A stretch of DNA of 64,000 nucleotides from Anaerolineae bacterium. Lineage in GTDB: Bacteria > Chloroflexota > Anaerolineae > UBA1429. Made by a program: the position numbers and the translations under genes. The notes beneath the pieces were generated by a model. It was not told where the DNA came from. It searched no databases and saw nothing but the letters and a program-made list of their open reading frames with translations. The stretch lies in NCBI GenBank assembly GCA_963675785.1, contig OY776562.1, positions 2,880,001-2,944,000 of the forward strand. The letters run 5' to 3'. This document shows positions 15,223 to 29,926 of the stretch, one piece after another; the first letter of the stretch is position 1; each line of letters begins with the position of its first letter.

Positions 15223-15894
15223 ATGGCCAAGCATTCAAGGTTGGAAGTTTGGAACACCATGGAAGAGGTGGGCCTGGTTCCCCTCTTTTACAATGCCGAT
15301 GTCGAGACCTCCATCAACGTTATCAAAGCCGTTTCCGCGGCTGGCTGCAAAGTAGTCGAGTTTACTAATCGCGGTGATCGTGCTTTTGAGGTTTTTCGCG
15401 AGGTGCTCGTTTACTTTGAAAAAGAAGATCCTTCGCTCATTCTTGGTATAGGCTCAGTTCAGGATGTAGCTACGGCGGGTCTGTTCATCAACCTGGGCGC
15501 CAACTTTGTGGTGGGCTCGGTGACCAATCCCGAAGTGGCTCGCTTGTGCAACCGTCGCAAGATAGCCTATTTCCCCGGGTGTGGGACGGCTACCGAAGTG
15601 GCCGCGGCTGAAGAGTTGGGCTGTGAAGTCGTCAAAATCTTCCCCGGCAGTGAGCTGGGCGGTCCTTCGTTCGTCAAAGCCATTACGGGTCCTTGCCCTT
15701 GGACAAAAGTAATGCCCACAGGTGGCGTGGATGCTACTTGGGAGAATCTCAAGGGCTGGTTCGATGCGGGCGTGGTCTGCGTGGGCATGGGTTCCAAGCT
15801 GGTGCGCAATGACCTTATCTCCAAGAAGGATTGGGCGAGCATCCAGACTTTGGCTGAGCAGTGTCTAGCTTGGGTTAAGCAGGCGCGGGGCTGA
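15223..15894 (+). CDS. eda: KDPG/KHG aldolase
   Basis: EFTNR, PGCGT..E, VKIFPG (Schiff-base Lys) and MPTGGV. Confidence 0.92.
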   Translation: MAKHSRLEVWNTMEEVGLVPLFYNADVETSINVIKAVSAAGCKVVEFTNRGDRAFEVFREVLVYFEKEDPSLILGIGSVQDVATAGLFINLGANFVVGSVTNPEVARLCNRRKIAYFPGCGTATEVAAAEELGCEVVKIFPGSELGGPSFVKAITGPCPWTKVMPTGGVDATWENLKGWFDAGVVCVGMGSKLVRNDLISKKDWASIQTLAEQCLAWVKQARG

Positions 15895-15905
15895 TTTTTG
15901 ACGAG

Positions 15906-15940
15906 AAACGGGGTTCGCTAGAAACAGCGAACCCCGTTTT
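15906..15940. terminator. Intrinsic terminator between convergent eda and HAD genes, probably bidirectional
   Basis: 14-bp perfect stem AAACGGGGTTCGCT / AGCGAACCCCGTTT with a 6-nt loop. Confidence 0.8.
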
Positions 15941-15941
15941 G

Positions 15942-16583
15942 TTATGCGTAGAGTTGATCCAACAGATCTACCGTGAGTTGAGTGAGATCGTCGAGGATCA
16001 AGTCGGCCTCTGCCAATTTCTCAGCAGGATGCGTGGTGGTGATGGCCAAACAGTGCATCCCTGCACGTTTGGCGGCTTGGACGCCTACAACGCCATCTTC
16101 GACCACCAGGCATTCGCAGGGTTTTGCCCCCAGCGAAGCGGCCGCGTTGATAAAAATGGTGGGATCGGGTTTGCTTTTGGCTAAAAAAGCGCCGGAGAGA
16201 ATGCTTTCGAAATAGTTGCCCAGATCCAAGGCATTGGTCACGGCTACGATGTTGGCCATTTCTCCCGAAGAAGCCACGGCTTGGCGATAGCCATGCTCGC
16301 GCCCATAAGCCAGCCAATGCGGCACGCCGGGCACGGGTTTGATCTGAGCAACGGCATCGCGGAAATAGACTTCTTTGCGTGCTGCTAGCAGTCGCTTTTC
16401 CTCTGTGGTAGCCGAGGGCAACCACAAATCCAGAATCTGCGCATTGGCCATCCCAAAGGTGTCATCAAAATCCTGGCGGGTCAGGTCTCGTTCTAGTTCC
16501 CCCAAAAGCCGCTGCCAGGCCACATAATGGGCAGCTCCTGTATCGGCAATGACACCGTCCATATCCCACAGAATGGCTCGCAT
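15942..16583 (-). CDS. HAD-family phosphatase (beta-PGM-like subfamily IA)
   Basis: WDMDGV (DxD), VASS, KPDP and VEDGVVGVQAA. Likely start is ATG 16583. Confidence 0.88.
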   Translation of the reverse strand: MRAILWDMDGVIADTGAAHYVAWQRLLGELERDLTRQDFDDTFGMANAQILDLWLPSATTEEKRLLAARKEVYFRDAVAQIKPVPGVPHWLAYGREHGYRQAVASSGEMANIVAVTNALDLGNYFESILSGAFLAKSKPDPTIFINAAASLGAKPCECLVVEDGVVGVQAAKRAGMHCLAITTTHPAEKLAEADLILDDLTQLTVDLLDQLYA

Positions 16584-16600
16584 ACAATCCCCGCTATTCA

Positions 16601-17266
16601 CTAACGCTCGGACGCTACTTCAAAAAAGGCCGCTTCTAACATCAGGCAAAGTTGATGGTAGATAATGATATGCAGTTCTTGCACTCGATAGGTCTCGGTT
16701 TCGGGCACGCACAGGGAAATATCCACCAACTCGGCCAGGGGATTGGGCCCCTTACCCGTTAGGCCGACGGTGAGCAGATCCAGGGCATTAGCTGTTTCTG
16801 CGGCCAGGCGCACGTTCATGGCTTTGCCGCTGGTGCTGATCCCCAACAATGCATCGCCAGGGCGAGCCAGGGCGTAGAGCTCCTGGGCATAGCCGATACC
16901 GGGCAGCCCGATATCATTAGCAACGGCGGATGCCAGCGCTGGATTAAGCCCCAAAACATGGGCACGCAGTCCGCGCTGAAGATTTTCTGCTAACTGTTGG
17001 CCATGCTGTTGGGTGCTGAGTGAAGTGGCCATATGGGTATCCACAGGGCGGGGCAGCACGAAGGACTTGAGCATCTCACCCGAGATGTGCATGGCGTCGG
17101 CAAAACTGCCACCATTGCCGCATAAAAAGAGCGTTCCGCCTTGTTTTAGGCTTTGTTCAAGCTGTTCAAAAGCTAAAAGGACTTGAGGAGCTATTTCTTC
17201 CAGATGAGGATGCGTCGCCAGCACTTGATATGCGCTGGCGACGCCCCGATTTTCTTTATCTGTCAT
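16601..17266 (-). CDS. SIS-domain phosphosugar isomerase, GmhA-like
   Basis: LCGNGGSFADAMH, ISTSG and RVQELH..YH. Confidence 0.85.
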   Translation of the reverse strand: MTDKENRGVASAYQVLATHPHLEEIAPQVLLAFEQLEQSLKQGGTLFLCGNGGSFADAMHISGEMLKSFVLPRPVDTHMATSLSTQQHGQQLAENLQRGLRAHVLGLNPALASAVANDIGLPGIGYAQELYALARPGDALLGISTSGKAMNVRLAAETANALDLLTVGLTGKGPNPLAELVDISLCVPETETYRVQELHIIIYHQLCLMLEAAFFEVASER

Positions 17267-17274
17267 GTAAAATC

Positions 17275-19773
17275 CTATCCTACGATGGGAGCGGGCTCGA
17301 TCGAAGCTTGAAGCGGCAGTTCATCTGCCGGCTGATCGAGTGTCATGGTGAGTTTATCCGTCTCGGCATCAACGTCAATGTAGATTGTATCGCCCTCACT
17401 AAAAGTCTTTTCGAGTAGTTTTTGCGAGAGCGGATTTTCGATATTGCGCTGAATGGCGCGGCGCAAAGGCCGGGCACCAAAAGCGTCGTCGTATCCTTTA
17501 TCAGCTAACCAGCCTTTGGCAGCCAACGATACTACAAGGTGCATATCTTGCTCACGCATACGCTGCTCGACGAGTGCAATTTGCAGATCGACAATTTGAA
17601 TCACGTCGTCTCGTGTGAGTTTGTGGAAAATGATGATCTCGTCGACGCGGTTTAGAAACTCGGGTCGGAAGGTCTTTTTTAGATTTTCAGATACATCATC
17701 CGAGAATTGTTCTTCTTCGGTAGAGCTGGATTCGACCGTAAAACCCATCATCTTGCCTCGTCGAGAGGCGTACTGCGTGCCCACATTCGAGGTCATGATG
17801 ATGACCGTGTTGCGAAAGTCTACCGTGTGACCGTGTCCGTCCGTCAACCGACCCTCTTCGAGAATCTGCATCAGGGTGTTCCACACATCGCCGTGGGCCT
17901 TTTCGATTTCATCGAAAAGGATGACCTGATAAGGACGACGCCGTACGGCTTCGGTGAGTTGGCCTCCTTGATCATAGCCAACGTATCCTGGAGGCGCTCC
18001 CACCAAACGCGATACAGTGTGACGTTCGCTGTATTCGCTCATGTCAATCTGCAGGATGGCATCCTTGTCATCGAACAGGAACTCAGCCAACGATTTGGCC
18101 AGCTCGGTTTTGCCCACACCGCTCGACCCCAAAAAGATAAAGCTGCCGATAGGGCGGCGCGGATCCTTGAGCCCTGCCCTGGCGCGGCGAATAGCGTCTG
18201 ATACGGCATTGATTGCATGGTCCTGACCGATCACTCGGGCGCGCATAAAGTCTTCCATGTGCAACAGGCGCTCCGTCGTTCCTTCTTGTAGACGTGTGAC
18301 GGGTATGCCGGTCCACATGGCCACAATTCGGGCGATATCTTCGGTATCTACTACTTCATCGAGTCCTTGCTGCTTTTGCCAGGTCTCTTTACCCTCGTCG
18401 AATTCGGCCTGCAGCTTTAAGCGTTGTGCCTTGAGCTCGGCGGCTCGCTCATAATCCGTGTTTTGGCCAGCGTTCTCTTCTTCCTGCTCCAGACGCCTTA
18501 TCTCCTTGCGGATGTCTTTGAGTGGTTCCGGCAGGCTGTGTATGCTGATTCGTAATCGAGAGGAGGCCTCGTCGATCAGGTCGATGGCCTTGTCTGGCAG
18601 ATGACGGTCTTTGACATAGCGATCGGCAAGCCGTACTGCCGCCTGGACGGCCTCATCGGTGATACGCACTTGATGATGAACCTCATAGCGATCTTTGAGG
18701 CCGCGCAGCATCTCGATGGTATCTTCAATGCTCGGCTCTTCGACAAAGATCGGTGCAAAGCGGCGTTCTAGAGCAGCGTCTTGTTCAATATGTTCACGAT
18801 ACTCATCGAGTGTTGTGGCGCCAATGCACTGCAACTCACCGCGTGCCAACGCAGGCTTCATCATGTTAGAGGCGTCAATAGCGCCCTGAGCAGCGCCAGC
18901 CCCCACAACCGTATGCAGCTCATCGATAAAGAGGATGATCTCTCCCTGGGCCTTTTGGATTTCATCGAGCGATGCTTTGAGGCGCTCTTCGAATTCGCCG
19001 CGGAAACGTGAACCGGCGATCATAGCACCTAGATCCAACGATACAACTCTTTTGTCCAAAAGGGTCTCGGGCACATCCCCCTCGACGATCTTTTGGGCTA
19101 GACCTTCGACAATGGCCGTTTTACCCACGCCAGCCTCGCCAATGAGTACCGGGTTATTCTTGGTTCTGCGTGAAAGAACCTGTAAAACACGCATGATCTC
19201 GACATCACGACCGATGACAGGATCCATACGTCCTTCTTTGGCCAACTGGGTGAGATCTCGACTGTATTTTTCCAGTGTGCGGAATCGGGTCTCCGATTGT
19301 GCATGGGTGACTTTGGTTCCGCCGCGGAATTCAACCAGAGCATCGTGAAAGGCATCGTAATCGACACCCTCTTCGATCAACATACGTGATGCCGCACTTT
19401 CCTTGTCGCTTAGCACAGCAAGGAAAAAGTGCTCGGTCGAGATGAGTTGATCTTGCAGTTGAGTCGCTTCGACGTTTGCCCGATCCATCATCCGCTTGAC
19501 CCGAGGAGTGATGTACATCTGCGGCGGGTGTGCCCCACCGACCTGATTCGTTGATAGGCCTGCTCGCAGCAGCTCTTCAAAACGCTGCCTGAGCGCATCT
19601 ACATCAACTTCCAGCGTGCCCAGGATGCGGTAAACTGGGCCATCCGTTTGTTCAAGAATGGCCAGTACAATATGTTCGGTGTCGAGTTGGCTGTGCCGGA
19701 ATTGCTGCATGAGCTCGTAAGCTCGCGATACAGCTTCCTGAGCGCGCTCTGTGAACTTTTCAAATCCTATCAT
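17275..19773 (-). CDS. clpC: ATP-dependent Clp protease ATP-binding subunit ClpC-type
   Basis: Double Clp-N domain, two AAA+ modules ([16 protein letters not shown]), short UVR-type middle domain, and an MMGF ClpP-docking-like loop. Confidence 0.88.
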
Positions 19774-19861
19774 GGTTTCTCCTATAACTCGGGTACCAAA
19801 GCCCGAGCAGTATTAGGCTATCAACATAGCTCTTGATGAGTCTACCTCAGGCCCAACCTTA

Positions 19862-22447
19862 TTAGGGTTGAATAGCCGTAAAAATGTAATCCTCACCCTT
19901 CACGTCAACCTGGACTATTTGTCCGTCGACGATCTTGCCCGTAAGTAACTCTAGGGCCAACGGATCCTGAATGCGACGCTGAATGGTTCGCTGAAGCGGG
20001 CGGGCACCATATAACGGGCTGTACCCTTCTTTTGCCAGAGCTCGGCGAGCATTCTCACTAACAGTCAATTCAATATCTCTTACAGCCAAGAGATGTTGTA
20101 GATGTTCAACCTGAATATCTACAATTTCACCCAATTGCTCTTCACTCAGTGAGTGGAACATGATCACATCATCGATTCGGTTGAGAAATTCAGGTTTAAA
20201 GTGTTGACGCAGGGCTTGCATAACACGTTCCCGCGTTGTCGGATCCTCGATATGGCCTTCGATCAGATATTGGCTACCGATATTAGAAGTCATAATGACG
20301 ACAGTGTTAGTAAAGTCGACTGTTCGGCCTTTGCCATCTGTCAACCGACCATCATCCAGTACTTGCAGCAGAATATTAAACACTTCGGCGTGCGCTTTTT
20401 CGATTTCGTCCAGTAGTACTACGCTGTATGGACGCCGACGCACGGCCTCGGAAAGTTGACCACCCTCGTCGTATCCCACATAACCAGGAGGCGCACCAAT
20501 CATTCGAGCGACGGTGTGCCGTTCTTGATACTCGCTCATGTCCAGCCGAATGAGTGCATCCTCATTATCAAAAAGGAATTCGGCAAGGGCCTTGGCCAGC
20601 TCAGTCTTACCGACACCCGTGGGCCCCATGAATAAAAAGCTGCCGATGGGGCGTTTTGAACTCTGCAAACCCGATCGTGAGCGGCGAACTGCGTTAGAAA
20701 CGGCTGAAATGGCCTGATCTTGCCCCACAACACGCTTGTGAAGACGCTCTTCCATGTGCACGAGCTTTTCGACTTCACCTTCTAGCATGCGAGAGACGGG
20801 AATACCCGTCCAATCAGCGATAATTTGGGCAATATCGTTCGGCGATACTTCTTCACGCAGCATCGAACCCTCACGGTGTTCTAGGGCTTTTTCCTTTTCG
20901 GCCAATTCTTGTTCGGCCTGTCGGATATCCGAATAGCGCAGCCGGGCGGCTTTTTCGAGATCGGCATTGCGCTCGGCCATCTCGGCCTCTGACCTTAGAT
21001 CTTCGAGTTTCGCCTTGAGCTCTTGGATGCTCTGGATTGCCTGCTGTTCCTGTTTGTACTGAGTCATCAGAACGTCGAGGATCTGCTGTTTTTCGCCCAG
21101 CTCTTCCTCGATTTTGGCCAAACGTTCCTTTGATGAGGCATCACTTTCTTGTGAAAGAGCCTGTTGCTCGATCTGCAATTGCAGAATGCGGCGCTGGGCA
21201 TCATCTACCTCTTGTGGCGAGCTATCGATCTCCATACGCAGCCGTGCGGCCGCCTCGTCCACAAGGTCGATAGCCTTATCGGGCAGATAGCGATCAGCGA
21301 TATAACGATCCGAGAGCGTTGCCGCGGCAATGAGGGCCGAATCTTGAATGCGCACACCATGGTGTACTTCGTAACGCTCTTTCAAACCGCGCAAAATGCT
21401 GATGGTTTCTTCCACCGAAGGTGCATCGACATACACCGGCTGGAAGCGTCGTGCTAGAGCAGCATCTTTTTCAATATGCTTTTGATATTCATCGAGGGTT
21501 GTTGCCCCGATGCAATTCAACTCACCCCTGGCCAAAAGCGGTTTGAGCATATTCGAAGCATCCAGCGAGCCTTCGGCTGCACCAGCACCAACTACCGTAT
21601 GCAGCTCATCAATAAAGAGGATGACTTCCCCTTCAGATGCTTGCACTTCTTTGAGGACGGCCTTGAGACGCTCTTCGAACTCGCCGCGGTATTTGGCGCC
21701 AGCGACCAACGAGCCCATATCCAGCGATAAAAGCCGACGGTCACGCAAGCCCTGAGGCACATCGCCATTGACGATGCGCATAGCCAGGCCTTCGACAATA
21801 GCCGTTTTCCCCACGCCGGCCTCTCCAACCAACACAGGGTTATTTTTGGTTCGGCGCGATAGGATTTGGATGATGCGCCGTATCTCTTGATCCCGCCCAA
21901 TGACCGGGTCCAGCTTGCCCTTTCGGGCAGCTTCGGTCAGATCCTGAGAGTATTTGGCCAGTGCCTGATAGCCACCTTCGGGATTCTGATCTGTAACACG
22001 TTGAGAACCACGAATCTTGGACAATGCCTCATATACATGATCGTGATCGATCTCATTCTTTTTCAATAGCGTTGCGACACGTCCTGTGGCAGTGGCGATG
22101 ATGCCCAGCAACAGATGCTCCGTCGAAACGTACTCGTCGTGCATGCGGTGTGCTTCTTCTTGTCCCTCTTGCAGGGCGGCACTTAGCTCTTGTGAAATGT
22201 AGCGTCGAACTGAGCCGCTCACCCTAGGAAGATCGGCAATGATACCTTGTAGTTCCTGCGTAAAGGACTGCCTGGAGACGGCCAGTTCTTTGAGCACTTC
22301 AGGCACGACGCCATCTTGTTGCTCTACCAATGCGAGAAGCAGGTGAGCGCTTTCAATATTGGGATTGGTGTGTTGTTCGGCCAGCTCTTGCGCCGCCATG
22401 ACGGCTTGCTGGGCTTTATCTGTGAATTCATTGATATTTGTTGGCAT
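19862..22447 (-). CDS. clpB: Disaggregase ClpB
   Basis: Two AAA+ modules, a long coiled-coil M domain (LRMEIDSSP...AARLRY), and no xGF loop. Confidence 0.95.
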
Positions 22448-22474
22448 GATTTTGGGCTCCTATATGACCCTGTA

Positions 22475-23554
22475 TCAGTATCTCAAGAGCGCACCAATAT
22501 GTCCTGCATTGGCTAACTCTTGGCTATTTCTAACAACGTTAACAGTTGCATCTGTCTGTATGGCCTGGTATATGGCCTGATTGACGGCATCTGGAGTGGG
22601 CTCAATATCGGTGGAACTGCAAAATGGACATTTGACCATGATATCCGCTGAAACATAGCCGCAATCTTTACAGCGGTATCCTGGATGTGTAAATCCGGCT
22701 TCCACAAGCATGATTTGTACTTGTCCTTGCTTTAGCGCATAGAGAGTGTCCTGCAGCCCCATGGCTCCTTCGCCACCTTTGCTTGCGGCTGTGATGGCTC
22801 GTGTTACAAGGGAGAGATCTCTCTGGTGTGCAATTTCCTGAGCCAGCTCCAGTGCCAGTTCAAGCACTTTGGCTGCAGGGATGCCTATATCTGCACTAAA
22901 CTCGCCAACGATTGTATCTTTGAGTGGCGTTGGCATGAGTTCCTTGACCTGAGCAATGACACTGCTGCTGCCAGCCAGAAGAAGGTACTCAATACCACTG
23001 AATTCCATGAACGTCTGGATAGCTTCTATGGCTTGTTTTAGATTCTGCACGGCCAAGTGGTCCTCGTGCCGTTGATAATTCTGCGCAGACCAGCCGCCTT
23101 GCTTATGCCGCTTGAGTTCTTCTCCGGTAAGTTCTGTACGAGCCTGTATCTCTCCCCACGAGACCATAAAGAGACGAAGCTGTTCTTTATCGAGCAGGGC
23201 AATGCCAAATGGCGCATAGAAATCAATCAGGTTAGCTAGAATGCCCACATAGGGCTTGTCGGAAAGGTATGCTTCTGGATCGACGGATACTGGCAGGGGG
23301 ATGCTCTTCCAGAGAAAGTCTCCCGCTGAAAAAATAGCCAATCCGCGTGCCTGCCAGTCATACTCGTAATCGAGATACTTTTGGATGCGCTCGATATCGC
23401 TTTTGTCAGCTTGCAGTTTGCCCAGATGATGACGGACAATGAGCCTTACGCCGTCTTTGTTTTGATGTGCAAGGTCTGTCGGGATGTAGAGTGAGATGAC
23501 AGGGTGGTCCTGGTCATAAGACACAAGTTGTTCCAACTGCTCATGCTCGTACAT
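22475..23554 (-). CDS. Bacterial aRF1/eRF1-like release-factor homolog (baeRF-type) with C-terminal zinc ribbon
   Basis: ISLYIP, GLAIF, RHKQGGWSAQNYQR loop, LLLAG, GxV..LLV-like motif, CKDC..CPFC and GHIGALLRY terminus. Confidence 0.85.
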   Translation of the reverse strand: MYEHEQLEQLVSYDQDHPVISLYIPTDLAHQNKDGVRLIVRHHLGKLQADKSDIERIQKYLDYEYDWQARGLAIFSAGDFLWKSIPLPVSVDPEAYLSDKPYVGILANLIDFYAPFGIALLDKEQLRLFMVSWGEIQARTELTGEELKRHKQGGWSAQNYQRHEDHLAVQNLKQAIEAIQTFMEFSGIEYLLLAGSSSVIAQVKELMPTPLKDTIVGEFSADIGIPAAKVLELALELAQEIAHQRDLSLVTRAITAASKGGEGAMGLQDTLYALKQGQVQIMLVEAGFTHPGYRCKDCGYVSADIMVKCPFCSSTDIEPTPDAVNQAIYQAIQTDATVNVVRNSQELANAGHIGALLRY

Positions 23555-23589
23555 GACTACCTCCCCTTGCTAGTTATTGCCCATTTTCT

Positions 23590-24003
23590 TTATTCTGAGG
23601 CATCTTCATCAGGGTTGACCTTGATGATTTGCAGCGGCTTTACCTCAGCCGCAGCCTCCTCCAACATTTCAACGCGACGTTGAAGCCTTGCAGTCTCTTG
23701 CAGATAGCGTACCTCTGATGCTTCTAATCTGCGCTGCAAGTCATGGATGCGATCGGTCATATTGAGAATGACTTCAACGCCAGCAAGGTTCACGCCAAGT
23801 TCTTCTGTTAGGCGTGATATCTTGCGTAGCTGTTCAATGTCTGCTTGCGAATACAGCCTTTGATGGCCTGCAGTTCGAGACGGCTTTAGAAGACCTATCC
23901 GCTCATAGTATCTGAGTCGTTGCGGATGAAGGCTCACAAGCTTAGCGGCAACGCTTATCACATAGCAGGGTTCTTCTTCTGGCAGATGCTCGTCATCCAT
24001 CAT
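23590..24003 (-). CDS. hspR: Heat-shock repressor HspR (MerR family)
   Basis: EPCYVISVAAKLVSLHPQRLRYYER..PSRT.G..RLYS..D, and LGVNLAGVEVIL. Near dnaJ and clpB. Confidence 0.9.
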   Translation of the reverse strand: MMDDEHLPEEEPCYVISVAAKLVSLHPQRLRYYERIGLLKPSRTAGHQRLYSQADIEQLRKISRLTEELGVNLAGVEVILNMTDRIHDLQRRLEASEVRYLQETARLQRRVEMLEEAAAEVKPLQIIKVNPDEDASE

Positions 24004-24021
24004 GTTTGGGCTCCTGGATTT

Positions 24022-25194
24022 CTACTCTGCTGGTCTTTCTTGCAAGAGGACAGGGACATTTATGGTTTCTCCATCTCGGATGATGGTTAGCTCTACCGTA
24101 TCACCAGGCAAAGCGTTCCGAGTAAGGTAAATGAGAAGATCATCAAACTGGTTTACAGCCGTATCGTCGATAGCAATAACGACATCCCCGCCCGTCGGCA
24201 AAAGCGAACCTAGCTGTTCTACGGTATCTGTACTGGGCAGTAAACCTGCTTCTTCCGCTGGGCTTCCTGCAGCAATGCTCAGCACAATGGCACCCTTGGT
24301 ATTATCTAATCCCAGGCTTTCTGCCTGGGCCGGATAAAGGTCCATACCAGTTACGCCCAGCCAGGGGTACTTGAATTCGCCGTATTCAATCAATGAAGGT
24401 GCCACTCGTTTGAGCGTGTTGATGGGCACTGCAAAGCCCACTCCTCCAGATGTGCCACTGGTCGAATTAATGGCCGTATTGATGCCGATGACTGCGCCTG
24501 TTCTATCGAGCAGTGGTCCGCCCGAATTGCCCACATTGATGGCGGCGTCGGTCTGAATCATCTCGGGAATAGAAAACTGGCCCGAGATCGCCTCGGACGA
24601 ATGACCGATTTGTAATGTCCGACTAAGGGCGCTGACGATGCCAGTTGTCATGGTGCCTGCAAAGCCAAAGGGATTGCCTATGGCGATGGTTTGTTGACCA
24701 ACTTGTACCTGGTCTGAATCAGCTAAAGGTAGTGCGACCAGATTAGCCGCGTTAGGATCGATCTGAATAATGGCGAGGTCAGAGTCAGGGTCTGTTCCCA
24801 GTGTCTCTGCCTCTAGCTTGGTACCATCGTAAAAAGTGACGAGTATTTCGGTGGCGCGCTCAACAACGTGATTATTGGTGGCGATATAGCCATGTTCTGC
24901 GTCTAGTACAAAGCCAGAACCTTGACCCTGTTCAATCACGGTTTCTCCGGCATCCAAAAGCTCGGTTAGTTCGGAAGGCCGCACGATTTCTATGGTAACC
25001 ACGCCCTCAATGACACGTTCATACAGACCGATAAGATCAGTCTCTTCCGGCGTCTCTGCGGCCGCTGTTTGCTCTGCAGTGGGCAGCGGCGTGGCATAGG
25101 TTAGGACACTTGTAACACTGCTGGGTGGACTGCAAGAGACGGTTGTAAGAACAAGCACCACGGCGATGAGAAGAAAGGCGAGTTTGTTTCTCAT
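24022..25194 (-). CDS. htrA: HtrA/DegP-family serine protease with PDZ domain, probable lipoprotein
   Basis: TNNHVV, SDLAI and GNSGGP triad, a PDZ domain, and signal MRNKLAFLL...TTVSC (lipobox-like). Confidence 0.9.
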   Translation of the reverse strand: MRNKLAFLLIAVVLVLTTVSCSPPSSVTSVLTYATPLPTAEQTAAAETPEETDLIGLYERVIEGVVTIEIVRPSELTELLDAGETVIEQGQGSGFVLDAEHGYIATNNHVVERATEILVTFYDGTKLEAETLGTDPDSDLAIIQIDPNAANLVALPLADSDQVQVGQQTIAIGNPFGFAGTMTTGIVSALSRTLQIGHSSEAISGQFSIPEMIQTDAAINVGNSGGPLLDRTGAVIGINTAINSTSGTSGGVGFAVPINTLKRVAPSLIEYGEFKYPWLGVTGMDLYPAQAESLGLDNTKGAIVLSIAAGSPAEEAGLLPSTDTVEQLGSLLPTGGDVVIAIDDTAVNQFDDLLIYLTRNALPGDTVELTIIRDGETINVPVLLQERPAE

Positions 25195-25198
25195 GGTG

Positions 25199-26155
25199 TT
25201 ACTTTCTAAGTTCCGCAAGCTCACGGTATAGTTCCTTTTCGCGTTCAGTGAGTGATTCTGGGATCTTGGCCACAATGGTAACCAGGAGATCCCCCTTCTT
25301 TTTGGGATGCTTTACGACAGGCATGCCCTGCCCGCGCAATCTAAATACGCGCCCCGAGGCTGTTTCTGGCGGAATACGTAGCGCTAACTTGCCTTTGAGC
25401 GTTGGAATTGTGGCTTCCCCGCCAAGAATGAGGGTGTATAGATCAACCATTGTCGTGGTGCGTAGATCGTCGCCATCCCGTTCAAATTGGGGGTGAGGCC
25501 GGACTTGAACGACAAGATGCAGATCGCCCTTGGATCCCCCATTGAAACCCGATTGACCTTCTCCGGCAATACGCACGCGTGATCCTGTTCTAACACCGGC
25601 CGGTATTTGTACTTCGATTTTACGTGATCCCGTATCAATAACGCGATGTGTACCTTCAAAGGCCTCTTCCAGGGTTATCTCGACAGGCAGTTCGGTGTTT
25701 TGTCCCTCGCTCATCTGGTTAAACCCCGAACGGGTTCGTGTTCTGCCAGAGTTTGTGGATCCAGCGCCACCAAACAGGCTCTCAAAGAACTCGGAAAAGG
25801 GATCTCCTCCACCCATACCACCTGCGCCCGTTGTTGTATAGGTATAGGTTTGTCGCGTGCCACCAGGTGCGGCCCCGCCGAACCATTGGCCCCAATCAAA
25901 ATTTCCAGGATCTGCTCCCGTGTTTTGATAGTCACGCCAACTGGAGCCCAGCTGGTCGTACTTTTGGCGCTTTTCAGGGTCAGTCAGTACCTCGTTAGCT
26001 TCATTTATTTCTTTAAAGCGTTCTTCAGCCGCTTTATTGTTAGGGTTGACATCCGGGTGGTACTTGCGCGCTAGCTTACGATAGGCCTTGCGAATATCCT
26101 CCGTGCTAGCATCGCGTTCTACACCCAGGGTTTTGTAATAGTCCTTGTATTCCAT
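25199..26155 (-). CDS. dnaJ: DnaJ-class co-chaperone lacking the zinc finger (CbpA-like, class II)
   Basis: KDYY..LG, HPD, G/F-rich linker and DnaJ C-terminal domain. No CxxCxGxG repeats. Confidence 0.88.
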
Positions 26156-26184
26156 ACACCCGCTCCACACATTTGAGTACCATG

Positions 26185-26213
26185 ATTATAAGCACGAAAA
26201 GGCCACAAGTCAA
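26185..26213 (-). promoter_or_regulatory. Sigma70-type promoter for the dnaJ-htrA-hspR-clpB operon
   Basis: TTGACT-17 bp-TATAAT on the minus strand. Confidence 0.75.
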
Positions 26214-26215
26214 GC

Positions 26216-26239
26216 AACTTGTTAATAGGCAGTCAAGTT
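26216..26239. promoter_or_regulatory. HAIR-like inverted repeat (candidate HspR operator)
   Basis: AACTTG-N12-CAAGTT. The minus strand reads CTTGACT-N7-AACAAG versus HAIR CTTGAGT-N7-ACTCAAG. Lies between the divergent promoters. Confidence 0.45.
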
Positions 26240-26266
26240 TAGTTACTGTTAATTGTGAAAAAAGTA

Positions 26267-26295
26267 TTGACAGCATATATCAATGGTGCTATCAT
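26267..26295 (+). promoter_or_regulatory. Sigma70-type promoter for the hsp20 pair
   Basis: TTGACA-17 bp-TATCAT with an extended TG. Confidence 0.8.
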
Positions 26296-26355
26296 CTCAA
26301 TTGAGAGATTTGAGCGAGAGTTCATGACTCTCTAGATCAAGTTTGGAGGTGCTTT

Positions 26356-26757
26356 ATGAGTAGCCTTGTGAGATTCGATCCTTTTAGTGATGTGGGCGTT
26401 GCCCGCCTGGGCACGCGCGCGGCTTCTTCTCTTGGAGTAGCTCTGGATATGTACGAGATCTCGGACGGCATTGTGGTTGAAGTGGCCATCCCAGGCATTG
26501 ACCCCGACGACATAGAGATTTCTGTAGTCGGTGATGATCTTACTATCAAGGGCGAATTCAAGGAAGAATCCGACCAAGAGGGACGTCAGTACTTTGTGCG
26601 CTCGCGCCGTTTTGGTGAGTTTTCACGCATGATTTCGCTGCCTGCATATGTTGATGCTTCCAAGACCACAGCCAGCTATGATAAGGGCGTTCTCAAGTTG
26701 GACGTCCCCCGTCGTGAAGAAACCAAGCCACGTCAGATTCAAGTCAAGATCAAGTAG
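26356..26757 (+). CDS. Small heat shock protein Hsp20
   Basis: Alpha-crystallin domain (PGIDPDDI, FGEFSR, ASYDKGVL) and a C-terminal IQV motif. GGAGG SD. Confidence 0.92.
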   Translation: MSSLVRFDPFSDVGVARLGTRAASSLGVALDMYEISDGIVVEVAIPGIDPDDIEISVVGDDLTIKGEFKEESDQEGRQYFVRSRRFGEFSRMISLPAYVDASKTTASYDKGVLKLDVPRREETKPRQIQVKIK

Positions 26758-26769
26758 GAGGAATTCAAC

Positions 26770-27219
26770 ATGTCTATGACACGTTGGGAACCATTTAGGG
26801 ATTTGATTACGCTTCGTGATGCCATGGATCGGATATTTGATGAGAACTATGTACGTCCGGGTGCTCGTTGGACAACTTCCCAGGGCGAGCAGTATTGCAG
26901 TTTGCCGATCGACATCTATACCACCGGGGAAGAGATTGTAATTCAGGCCTCAGTGCCTGGTCTCGATCCCGAAAAAGTGGACATCACACTAGAAGGTGAT
27001 ACGCTCACGATCAAGGGGGAGGTTGCAGGCCCTCTCGAGAATGTGAACTATGTGATTCAGGAAATGCCTTGTGGCAAGTTCCAGCGTACCTTGCGATTGA
27101 ACGTGCCCATCGAGGCAGAAAAGGCTGAGGCCAGCTTTGACAAGGGCGTTCTGACTCTGGTCGTTCCAAAGCAGGAAGAGATCCGGCCCAAGACCATCAA
27201 AGTGTCGACCAAGGAGTAA
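26770..27219 (+). CDS. Small heat shock protein Hsp20
   Basis: RWEPFRDL, PGLDPEKV, GKFQRT, ASFDKGVL and IKV motif. Confidence 0.93.
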   Translation: MSMTRWEPFRDLITLRDAMDRIFDENYVRPGARWTTSQGEQYCSLPIDIYTTGEEIVIQASVPGLDPEKVDITLEGDTLTIKGEVAGPLENVNYVIQEMPCGKFQRTLRLNVPIEAEKAEASFDKGVLTLVVPKQEEIRPKTIKVSTKE

Positions 27220-27256: not shown

Positions 27257-27290
27257 AAGTTCCCGAGGCTGCTGTCTCGGGAACTTTTTT
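27257..27290 (+). terminator. Intrinsic terminator after the hsp20 genes
   Basis: AAGTTCCCGAG..CTCGGGAACTT stem followed by a T-run. Confidence 0.8.
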
Positions 27291-27795
27291 ACGAGTTTTG
27301 TTCAAATAGATAGGATCGAAGTGACTTTATTTGCCAGGTCATCGGGCCTGCTAACAACCCCTCTTTGGACATGATCTCTAGCTCACTTGGGGAAACCCAC
27401 TTGGCGGCAACTGTTTCTCCTTCTTGCAGAGCGAGATTTCCGATAGAGACATCTTTACGGACCAGATAGAGATCTACAAAAACGTCAAGACCCTTTTTGA
27501 CAGTCAGCAAGGTAAGATCGCATTGATTGATCGTGATTCCCGTTTCTTCTTGTAATTCGCGTACTGCGCCCTCTGTGCTGCTTTCTCCAGCGAGAACAGA
27601 ACCCCCAGTGTTTTCCCATGTGTTTGGCCAGGGCTCTTTGTACGGATCTCGTAGCGTTAGGAGAATCTGCTCCTCACTGTTAATTGTCCATATATTTACG
27701 ACGATGTGACGCTCGCCTTCCTTGAGCACAATTCCTCTGGGGTGTGTCCTATCGAGCGGATGCCTTTTCTCATCATATAAATCCCAAAATTCCAT
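27289..27795 (-). CDS. NUDIX hydrolase
   Basis: Nudix box GGSVLAGESSTEGAVRELQEETGI. Likely start MEFWDLYD. Confidence 0.85.
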   Translation of the reverse strand: MEFWDLYDEKRHPLDRTHPRGIVLKEGERHIVVNIWTINSEEQILLTLRDPYKEPWPNTWENTGGSVLAGESSTEGAVRELQEETGITINQCDLTLLTVKKGLDVFVDLYLVRKDVSIGNLALQEGETVAAKWVSPSELEIMSKEGLLAGPMTWQIKSLRSYLFEQNS

Positions 27796-27898
27796 AGTTT
27801 GACCTCGTCTTGAGCCAGCACGTTGCCTGAGCATATCATTTCATAGGTCGAAAGGCTATTCTATCTGAGGCGCAGATGCTGTTACTTTGTATGGGCAT

Positions 27899-27959: not shown

Positions 27960-29926
<1,967 letters not shown>

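Follow-up and report, generated by a model that had tools for sequence, protein, structure and literature searches.

An aeRF1-like gene in a heat-shock operon

The window analysed here is a stretch of 64,000 nucleotides (nt) from the genome of an Anaerolineae bacterium of the Chloroflexota (contig OY776562.1, positions 2,880,001 to 2,944,000), and our subject is a protein of 359 amino acids (aa) encoded in it, here called the factor, a bacterial member of the aeRF1 superfamily whose gene lies among genes for chaperones and proteases. Genes were called with Pfam and NCBIfam on the open reading frames (ORFs) of the window, and coordinates are positions in the window. Eight consecutive ORFs occupy the minus strand from 15942 to 26155 in the order dnaJ-htrA-hspR-[baeRF]-clpB-clpC-SIS-HAD. 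The first, dnaJ (25199-26155), encodes a CbpA-like protein with a J domain and DnaJ_C and without a Cys-rich zinc finger in its translation. It is followed by a gene for an HtrA/DegP-type serine protease (24022-25197; Trypsin_2 and PDZ domains), the listed ORF of which opens at a TTG at 25275; the likelier start is the Met at 25197, ahead of an N-terminal hydrophobic segment. Next come hspR (23590-24003), encoding the MerR-family heat-shock repressor (NF047375, 112.8 bits, cut-off 105), and the factor gene itself (22475-23554), which is preceded by the ribosome-binding site GGGGAGG. Downstream lie the gene for the disaggregase ClpB (19862-22447; TIGR03346, 1317.9 bits, cut-off 1232.1) and that for a second Clp ATPase (17275-19773; Clp_N and two AAA modules), which we assign to the ClpC type because it has a short middle domain and, at residue 676, an MMGF ClpP-docking loop, which ClpB lacks. 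The run ends with genes for a SIS-domain, GmhA-like protein (16601-17266; Pfam/NCBIfam) and a HAD-family phosphatase (15942-16601), the position of the latter not being kept in relatives.

The genes are closely packed, with gaps of 18 nt between htrA and hspR, 35 nt between hspR and the factor gene, 27 nt between the factor gene and clpB, 88 nt between clpB and clpC and 8 nt between clpC and the SIS gene; the gap between dnaJ and htrA is about 1 nt if htrA begins at Met 25197. A Shine-Dalgarno sequence precedes each of the factor gene, clpB and clpC, and no terminator-like site was found between the genes of the run in a scan of positions 15400-26500. An earlier, sequence-only reading of this locus had described a tight minus-strand run from dnaJ to the HAD gene, interrupted by 88 nt between clpB and clpC, in which an aRF1-like gene separates the repressor from the disaggregase, and this description is borne out.

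Promoter and operator-like repeat

The same reading had placed the start of the run at a TTGACT-17-TATAAT promoter. This element (26185-26213, minus strand) agrees with the consensus at 11 of 12 positions, lies 29 nt ahead of the dnaJ ATG and is the sole strong minus-strand promoter-like site in the scanned region. The total site counts were not above those in shuffled sequence, and the scan therefore shows anatomy rather than statistical proof.

Adjoining the -35 element is an inverted repeat, AACTTGACT-N6-TAACAAGTT (26216-26239, minus strand; arms 26216-26221 and 26234-26239), which is a candidate HspR operator. In its context it reads CTTGACT-N6-TAACAAG-TTGC-TTGACT, with 4 nt (TTGC) between it and the -35. 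The DNA ahead of dnaJ in related loci was aligned on the -35/-10 pair, which is present in 37 of 49 regions (48 loci and the window). AAAgTTGAGy-N7-TATCAA, followed 4 nt on by a TTGACA -35, is common to 23 of the 36 related promoter-anchored regions (L002-L030), and the window repeat stands in the same register as TTGAGy-N7-TATCAA of the relatives, with a spacer one base shorter and one departure per arm. A strict regular expression for the repeat matched 9 of 48 upstream regions, as against 31 of 9040 background windows. The repeat appears to be of the HAIR (HspR-associated inverted repeat) type, and it is sited such that a bound repressor, presumably HspR, would cover the -35.

The HAIR consensus used for comparison is that of the actinobacterial HspR regulons (dnaK operon, clpB). 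Like these, the operon contains DnaJ and ClpB genes, carries an inverted repeat with a TTGAG-type half-site at its promoter and codes for a MerR-type HspR that presumably represses its own operon. It differs in having neither dnaK nor grpE, and in the right arm of the repeat, which is TATCAA-like rather than ACTCAA.

Family and fold of the factor

The factor matches Pfam PF18854 (baeRF_family10) at 100.6 bits, well above the cut-off of 27.1, with lower scores for acVLRF1 (PF18859, 42), baeRF_family2 (30.8) and eRF1_2 (22.7). By profile it thus falls into family 10 of the bacterial aeRF1 (baeRF-1) clade in Pfam, and the aRF1-like gene of the sequence-only reading has its family. This family was defined by Burroughs and Aravind (2019; PMC6514570), whose main text describes it as having a three-domain architecture, a zinc ribbon and a well-conserved Gln in the catalytic loop; the factor shares the architecture and the ribbon, and a Gln of its loop region (Q152 or Q161, see below) may be the one meant. 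The NCBIfam equivalogs of the hibernation factors scored below their cut-offs (MSMEG_1130, 59.4 bits versus 480; Rv2629, 53.4 versus 320; AOC03_06830, 30.4 versus 330), as did TIGR03676 (aRF1_eRF1; 57.5 versus 234.7). Since both the Balon and the aRF1 equivalog scores lie far under their cut-offs, the factor represents a distinct subfamily and not an orthologue of a characterised protein. Some homologues are named 'Vms1/Ankzf1 family peptidyl-tRNA hydrolase' at NCBI.

The AlphaFold model of the factor is of high confidence (predicted local distance difference test score 89.7, predicted template-modelling score 0.80), and only the loop at residues 141-160 scores low, at about 57-63. The best Foldseek match of the model is the MSMEG_1130 Balon on the 70S ribosome (8v9l_z; template-modelling score, TM, 0.83/0.80; E 2.5e-25; 379 columns), followed by Rv2629 (TM 0.77) and the P. 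urativorans Balon (0.69-0.71), while aRF1 and ribosome-bound eRF1 reach about 0.53-0.58 and Pelota/Dom34 less. Searches of PDB sequences gave a similar picture. With the single sequence, eRF1 was found at 7.1e-08 and the MSMEG_1130 Balon at 2e-04; with a 30-sequence family profile, the MSMEG_1130 Balon became the top match over its full length (3.4e-16), with eRF1 chains next, then the Rv2629 Balon (6.7e-10) and, weakly, the P. urativorans Balon (7.5e-04). Both Foldseek and the profile thus place the factor among proteins of the Balon-type three-domain aeRF1-like fold. It consists of a short N domain (residues ~1-98), a middle domain that carries the KRHKQGGW loop and a C domain with a zinc ribbon; VIM, ankyrin or other added domains were not detected with Pfam. 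At 359 aa it is close in length to the Balons of P. urativorans and mycobacteria (P. urativorans Balon, MSMEG_1130 and Rv2629; 362-375 aa), with which it shares only 17-18% identity.

The middle and C domains, the latter with a zinc ribbon, are homologous to those of aRF1/eRF1. The weak TIGR03676 match and the PDB sequence matches to eRF1 could be taken to indicate an alternative termination factor that reads stop codons at high temperature. The distance of that score from its cut-off speaks against such a role, as do the N domain, which is about 40 residues shorter than that of eRF1 and superposes on that of Balon, and the stop-codon motif NIKS, which occurs in none of the 120 homologues examined below and is likewise absent from Balon. 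RF1 and RF2 are, moreover, both encoded in the genome. We consider a termination factor very improbable.

The QGGW loop and the zinc ribbon

Motifs were counted in 120 homologues of the factor. The loop of the factor itself reads KRHKQGGW (K148-W155), with Q161-R162 beyond it, and in the PDB sequence alignment KRHKQGGWSA pairs without gaps with KKHGRGGQSA of eRF1, so that GGW in the factor corresponds to GGQ in eRF1. The di-glycine G153-G154, preceded by Q152, is kept as QGG in 118 of the 120 homologues. The residue that follows GG is W in 109 (107 QGGW, one QEGW and one SEGW), R in four, Y in three, K in two and P and S in one each; it is never Q, and GGQ was accordingly found at the loop in 0 of 120. 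The spacing from QGGx to QR is 5 in 107 of the 109 homologues scored, Q161 is invariant in the homologue alignment, and the most conserved 15-residue window of the whole protein begins at K148 (0.89 versus a mean of 0.64). A search of a library of 1.84 billion proteins gave 7245 relatives at E ≤0.001, 1251 of them at E ≤1e-30; the best 150 representatives yielded 156 aligned stretches, of which 60 have QGGW, and xGGW is present in many remoter ones. The loop of MSMEG_1130, by comparison, has no GG and can be aligned only with gaps.

A CxxC-N8-14-CxxC zinc ribbon was found in 116 of the 120 homologues, the cysteines of the factor being C295, C298, C309 and C312. It is an insertion at the site of Balon's beta-hairpin that binds EF-Tu, where MSMEG_1130 has no Cys; that ribbon and hairpin share one insertion site is also described by Burroughs and Aravind (PMC6514570), according to whom the zinc ribbon lies in the C domain of classical aeRF-1 and the N-terminal domain has been lost in acVLRF-1. 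No conserved His-Pro pair is evident in the homologue alignment, the text of PMC10901736 giving the HP motif of Balon without residue numbers.

The loop bears directly on the possibility, in essence the proposal of the sequence-only reading without its Vms1 part, that the factor is active in rescue. It would hydrolyse peptidyl-tRNA in the manner of aeRF1 but independently of stop codons, and so free nascent chains from stalled ribosomes after heat shock, the released products then passing to DnaJ/ClpB or being degraded by ClpC-ClpP and HtrA. Such a role is favoured by the gapless pairing with eRF1, the near-invariance of Q152, G153 and G154, the fixed length of the loop and its conservation, which no other part of the protein equals, the retention of the ancestral four-Cys zinc ribbon and the presence of unfoldases and proteases among the conserved operon partners. 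It is disfavoured by the Trp at the position of the GGQ Gln, by a fold and profile nearer to the non-hydrolytic Balon than to aRF1/eRF1 and by the RF1, RF2, RqcH and ArfB-like proteins that the genome already has; chaperone co-regulation would be expected equally of a hibernation factor. On this evidence we regard active rescue as possible, if doubtful.

In bacterial release factors, many substitutions of the GGQ Gln keep much of the hydrolytic activity, whereas substitutions of GG do not. To our knowledge, however, every proven hydrolase of either release-factor superfamily keeps Gln at this position. A Pro after GG would take away the backbone NH used by release factors. The rare loop variants QGGP and QGGS, carried by the homologues P0080 and P0094, could be informative on the question of hydrolysis.

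Conservation of the linkage

To place the gene order of the window among relatives, the contigs of one genome per species were scanned, giving 154 relatives, and the best 80 loci were examined by tblastn with the eight proteins of the window. All 80 are labelled Chloroflexota (Anaerolineae/Anaerolineales, Thermoflexus, Caldilineae and some 'Chloroflexia'). HspR is encoded at most 300 nt upstream on the same strand in 42 of the 77 loci with enough upstream DNA, and a gene for HspR, DnaJ or HtrA lies directly upstream of the factor gene in 60 of the 77. A ClpB/ClpC-type gene follows within 1 kb in 48 of 71. Forty-two of the 68 loci that could be assessed on both sides are linked on both and 58 on at least one, which answers the call of the sequence-only reading for a survey of hspR-baeRF-clpB neighbourhoods: the linkage is conserved throughout a class of the Chloroflexota. 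With X for the factor, the gene orders include DnaJ-HtrA-HspR-X-ClpB-ClpC, DnaJ-HspR-X-ClpB-ClpC-SIS, DnaJ-X-ClpC, HtrA-X and HspR-X-ClpC; the factor gene stands alone in 12 loci, and in three more at contig ends. Eleven further loci of the phylum have HtrA adjacent in six cases, DnaJ-HspR adjacent in one and none of these within 1.5 kb in four. The association of the factor with heat-shock genes has thus outlasted repeated rearrangement, down to about 30-35% protein identity, although the linkage counts are inflated by shared ancestry because all loci come from one phylum.

This shared ancestry, the four-Cys zinc site and the position of the factor gene directly downstream of hspR in the 42 loci would also fit a protein without a ribosomal function, for example a regulatory partner of HspR or Clp that senses temperature or redox state through its zinc ribbon, or else a synteny inherited without a functional tie. 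We think this improbable. All three ribosome-binding domains of aeRF1/Balon are kept in a model of high confidence, the conserved residues cluster in the loop whose counterpart in relatives is turned towards the peptidyl-transferase centre, and the linkage persists through rearrangement even where hspR is missing (DnaJ-BAE-ClpC, HtrA-BAE, with BAE for the factor).

Distribution and other ribosome-associated factors

Of the 201 genomes sampled from the class, 146 (~73%) have the factor at E ≤1e-40, mostly as a single copy, as do 110 of the 157 high-quality ones and, in an even sample of the phylum, 35 of 301. RqcH is present in 98 of the 201 genomes of the class. The two co-occur in 67 genomes, 79 have only the factor, 31 only RqcH and 24 neither (odds ratio 0.66, p 0.21; kin not independent). 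The factor is therefore not tied to quality control of the RqcH type, since the cross-table shows no positive association, and this too is a point against active rescue. HPF is present in 196 of the 201 genomes; being near-universal, it occurs together with the factor, and the pattern is uninformative about replacement of one by the other.

The genome of the window encodes HPF (a 177-aa open frame), RqcH (NFACT_N, 566 aa), RF1, RF2 and a 141-aa RF-1-domain protein that is ArfB-like in size. The HPF gene lies about 2.9 Mb by coordinate from the operon, close to the first position of the single contig, and would be nearer if the replicon is circular. Two EF-Tu genes of equal score (717.9 bits) are located at C1:3076217-3077416 and 2413151-2414350. 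Of the five further genomes that were sampled from the taxonomic family of the window, four (G031, G074, G115 and G176, 98-99% complete) have no factor at E ≤1e-40, and all five have RqcH and HPF. This points to a recent loss or gain of the factor within the family.

A candidate heat-induced A-site factor

Neither the family, defined in 2019, nor the functional class, known since 2024 together with its habit of residing in stress operons, is new. In the view of Burroughs and Aravind, most baeRF families are non-catalytic blockers of the A site linked to HPF, and a hydrolase role was suggested for family 10 (PMC6514570). Balon, as described by Helena-Bueno et al. (2024; PMC10901736), occupies the ribosomal A site with EF-Tu, makes no contact with mRNA and keeps the peptidyl-transferase centre inert. 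It does not release peptide and has no NIKS motif, and in place of GGQ it has a lasso loop and a bL27 trap; an HP motif of its N domain binds the decoding centre, and the beta-hairpin inserted in its C domain binds EF-Tu (PMC10901736). The usual setting of Balon genes is a stress operon, where genes for Hsp20, DnaK, DnaJ, RaiA and others accompany them, and YocB of B. subtilis is heat-induced (PMC10901736). The statement of the sequence-only reading that baeRF proteins are largely uncharacterised is therefore out of date, as Balon belongs to the same clade and has been reported from chaperone operons.

The favoured interpretation is that the factor is a heat-induced A-site factor of the Balon type that arrests or protects ribosomes, a proposition that we hold to be evenly balanced. 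We arrive at it because fold and profile are nearest to Balon, the presence of such genes in stress operons, near Hsp20 and DnaJ-type chaperones, is published (PMC10901736), the linkage is conserved and both HspR and the repeat are present. Our analysis establishes the family, fold and motifs of the factor, the anatomy of its operon, the conserved linkage and the conserved operator-like repeat; heat induction, binding to the A site and arrest without peptide release we infer. In the proposed mechanism, the one sigma-70-type promoter would transcribe the factor gene together with dnaJ, htrA, hspR, clpB and clpC, and HspR would most likely repress it through the HAIR-like inverted repeat adjoining the -35. 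Heat or unfolded protein would relieve this repression, so that the factor would be produced alongside chaperones and proteases. It would then enter the A site of the ribosome independently of any stop codon. The N domain, short and devoid of NIKS, would be directed to the decoding centre, and the QGGW loop would reach the peptidyl-transferase centre. With translation paused and ribosomes shielded, DnaJ, ClpB, ClpC, HtrA and the neighbouring Hsp20 proteins would clear damaged protein.

Several observations weigh against this interpretation. The QGG loop is highly conserved and collinear with eRF1, whereas characterised Balons have no di-glycine and a poorly conserved loop, and by the criteria of Burroughs and Aravind such conservation would point to catalysis (PMC6514570). 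The hibernation-factor equivalogs are matched far under their cut-offs, the best of them at the 59.4 bits versus 480 given above. HPF is present in this genome as in nearly all of the class, so that the need for another hibernation factor is not obvious. Ten of the 68 assessable loci, nine of Thermoflexus and L044, have no heat-shock neighbours. As to regulation, the sequence-only reading had noted a HAIR-like repeat at the promoter; the repeat is real, in a register shared with 23 loci, but degenerate, and the canonical HAIR was not matched at the promoter with up to three mismatches. The one match found by this search is intragenic (24370-24390), and at least one match arose in 86 of 100 shuffles. 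Genome-wide, the pattern TTGASTN{6,7}TAWCAA has two matches, the operon site and one within a coding frame, versus two in the control, and nothing points to a larger regulon defined by it in this genome.

The QGG(W) loop and the zinc ribbon appear to separate the factor from every characterised Balon, and they make a catalytic role, or one that otherwise engages the peptidyl-transferase centre, conceivable, though we would not expect it. A hydrolase function is retained as a possibility because the GG loop is kept, as Burroughs and Aravind proposed for family 10 (PMC6514570). In its full form this alternative would make family 10 a heat-shock-induced, stop-codon-independent aeRF1-type factor whose QGG(W) loop is active in the peptidyl-transferase centre, with nascent chains of heat-stalled ribosomes released or processed and then handled by DnaJ/ClpB, ClpC-ClpP and HtrA. 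We find it rather unlikely. If true, it would represent a bacterial, HspR-controlled and RqcH-independent counterpart of the rescue logic of Pelota/eRF1/Vms1, and the Balon/baeRF clade would have its first member with catalytic activity.

The sequence-only reading had gone further and suggested a module for rescue and disposal in the manner of Vms1/Cdc48. Indeed, the factor shares with Vms1/ANKZF1 a middle domain of the aeRF1 superfamily (the PF18859 match), and its gene is associated with genes for AAA+ unfoldases, as Vms1 is with Cdc48. It differs from the VLRF-1 clade in its much higher family-10 score (100.6 versus 42), in having kept a Balon-like N domain, in having no VIM or ankyrin domains and in its lack of co-occurrence with RqcH. 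With non-releasing Balons as the nearest characterised relatives by fold and profile and the GGQ Gln replaced, this suggestion is not supported at present.

The main text of PMC6514570 contains no occurrence of ClpB, HspR, DnaJ or heat (its Supplementary Data lie outside this search), and the HPF linkage that it reports for several baeRF families is not seen for the factor here. We found no printed account of the class-wide embedding between hspR and clpB/clpC, of the promoter-proximal HAIR-like repeat or of the QGGW signature, the supplements of PMC6514570 and PMC10901736, which may list such operons, lying outside the search.

Balon has set the precedent that bacterial homologues of aeRF1 can put ribosomes to sleep, and only members without GG have been studied so far. 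A subfamily that combines the di-glycine loop of release factors with a zinc ribbon, encoded in an HspR operon beside the disaggregase, offers a clean natural test of two questions: whether hibernation evolved from release factors via a still-active intermediate, and whether translation arrest or rescue is transcriptionally coupled to protein disaggregation in bacterial heat stress. A factor that only hibernates ribosomes would be unremarkable, as another Balon homologue in a stress operon; hydrolysis of peptidyl-tRNA by it would amount to a new rescue pathway in bacteria.

Further features of the locus and its relatives

Among the loci without heat-shock neighbours, those of Thermoflexus are L037-L039, L041, L042, L045, L047, L053 and L069, and their homologues, including that of L044, have about 38-41% identity. 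In L044, a gene for an ECF sigma factor lies just downstream of the homologue and one for a response regulator upstream, which suggests a different stress input in that lineage. No alternative conserved partner gene emerged in these loci: of eight neighbouring ORFs scanned with Pfam, four had no family, and the assignments of the others were limited to an HTH/PBP regulator, a response regulator, an ECF sigma factor and a radical-SAM/TRAM enzyme.

In 12 of the 80 related loci (for example L002, L006, L008, L009, L011, L017, L018 and L023-L026), clpC has a SIS-domain gene of the GmhA/DiaA type behind it. A sugar-phosphate-isomerase-like protein is thus a conserved member of this heat-shock operon. 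Within the operon, the 88-nt spacer between clpB and clpC contains a small hairpin, CTCGGG-N8-CCCGAG (19788-19807), with no T run after it; a role in the processing or stability of the RNA is conceivable, as is weak attenuation that sets the levels of clpB and clpC apart.

On the other side of the promoter, two tandem hsp20 genes (26356-26757 and 26770-27219, plus strand) are divergent from the operon. A Cpn60/GroEL gene (27960-29606, minus strand) lies two genes past this pair, with a NUDIX gene (27289-27834) in between. The locus is thus a heat-shock island made up of the operon, the divergent hsp20 pair and Cpn60/GroEL nearby. The hsp20 pair has its own promoter, TTGACA-17-TATCAT (26267-26295, plus strand), and a perfect 12-nt palindrome, TCTCAATTGAGA (26295-26306), starts on the last base of the -10 element (TATCAT). 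Its half-sites, TTGAG/CTCAA, are those of the operator-like repeat, here joined directly and in reversed order, and it may be a second repressor site that governs the hsp20 pair.

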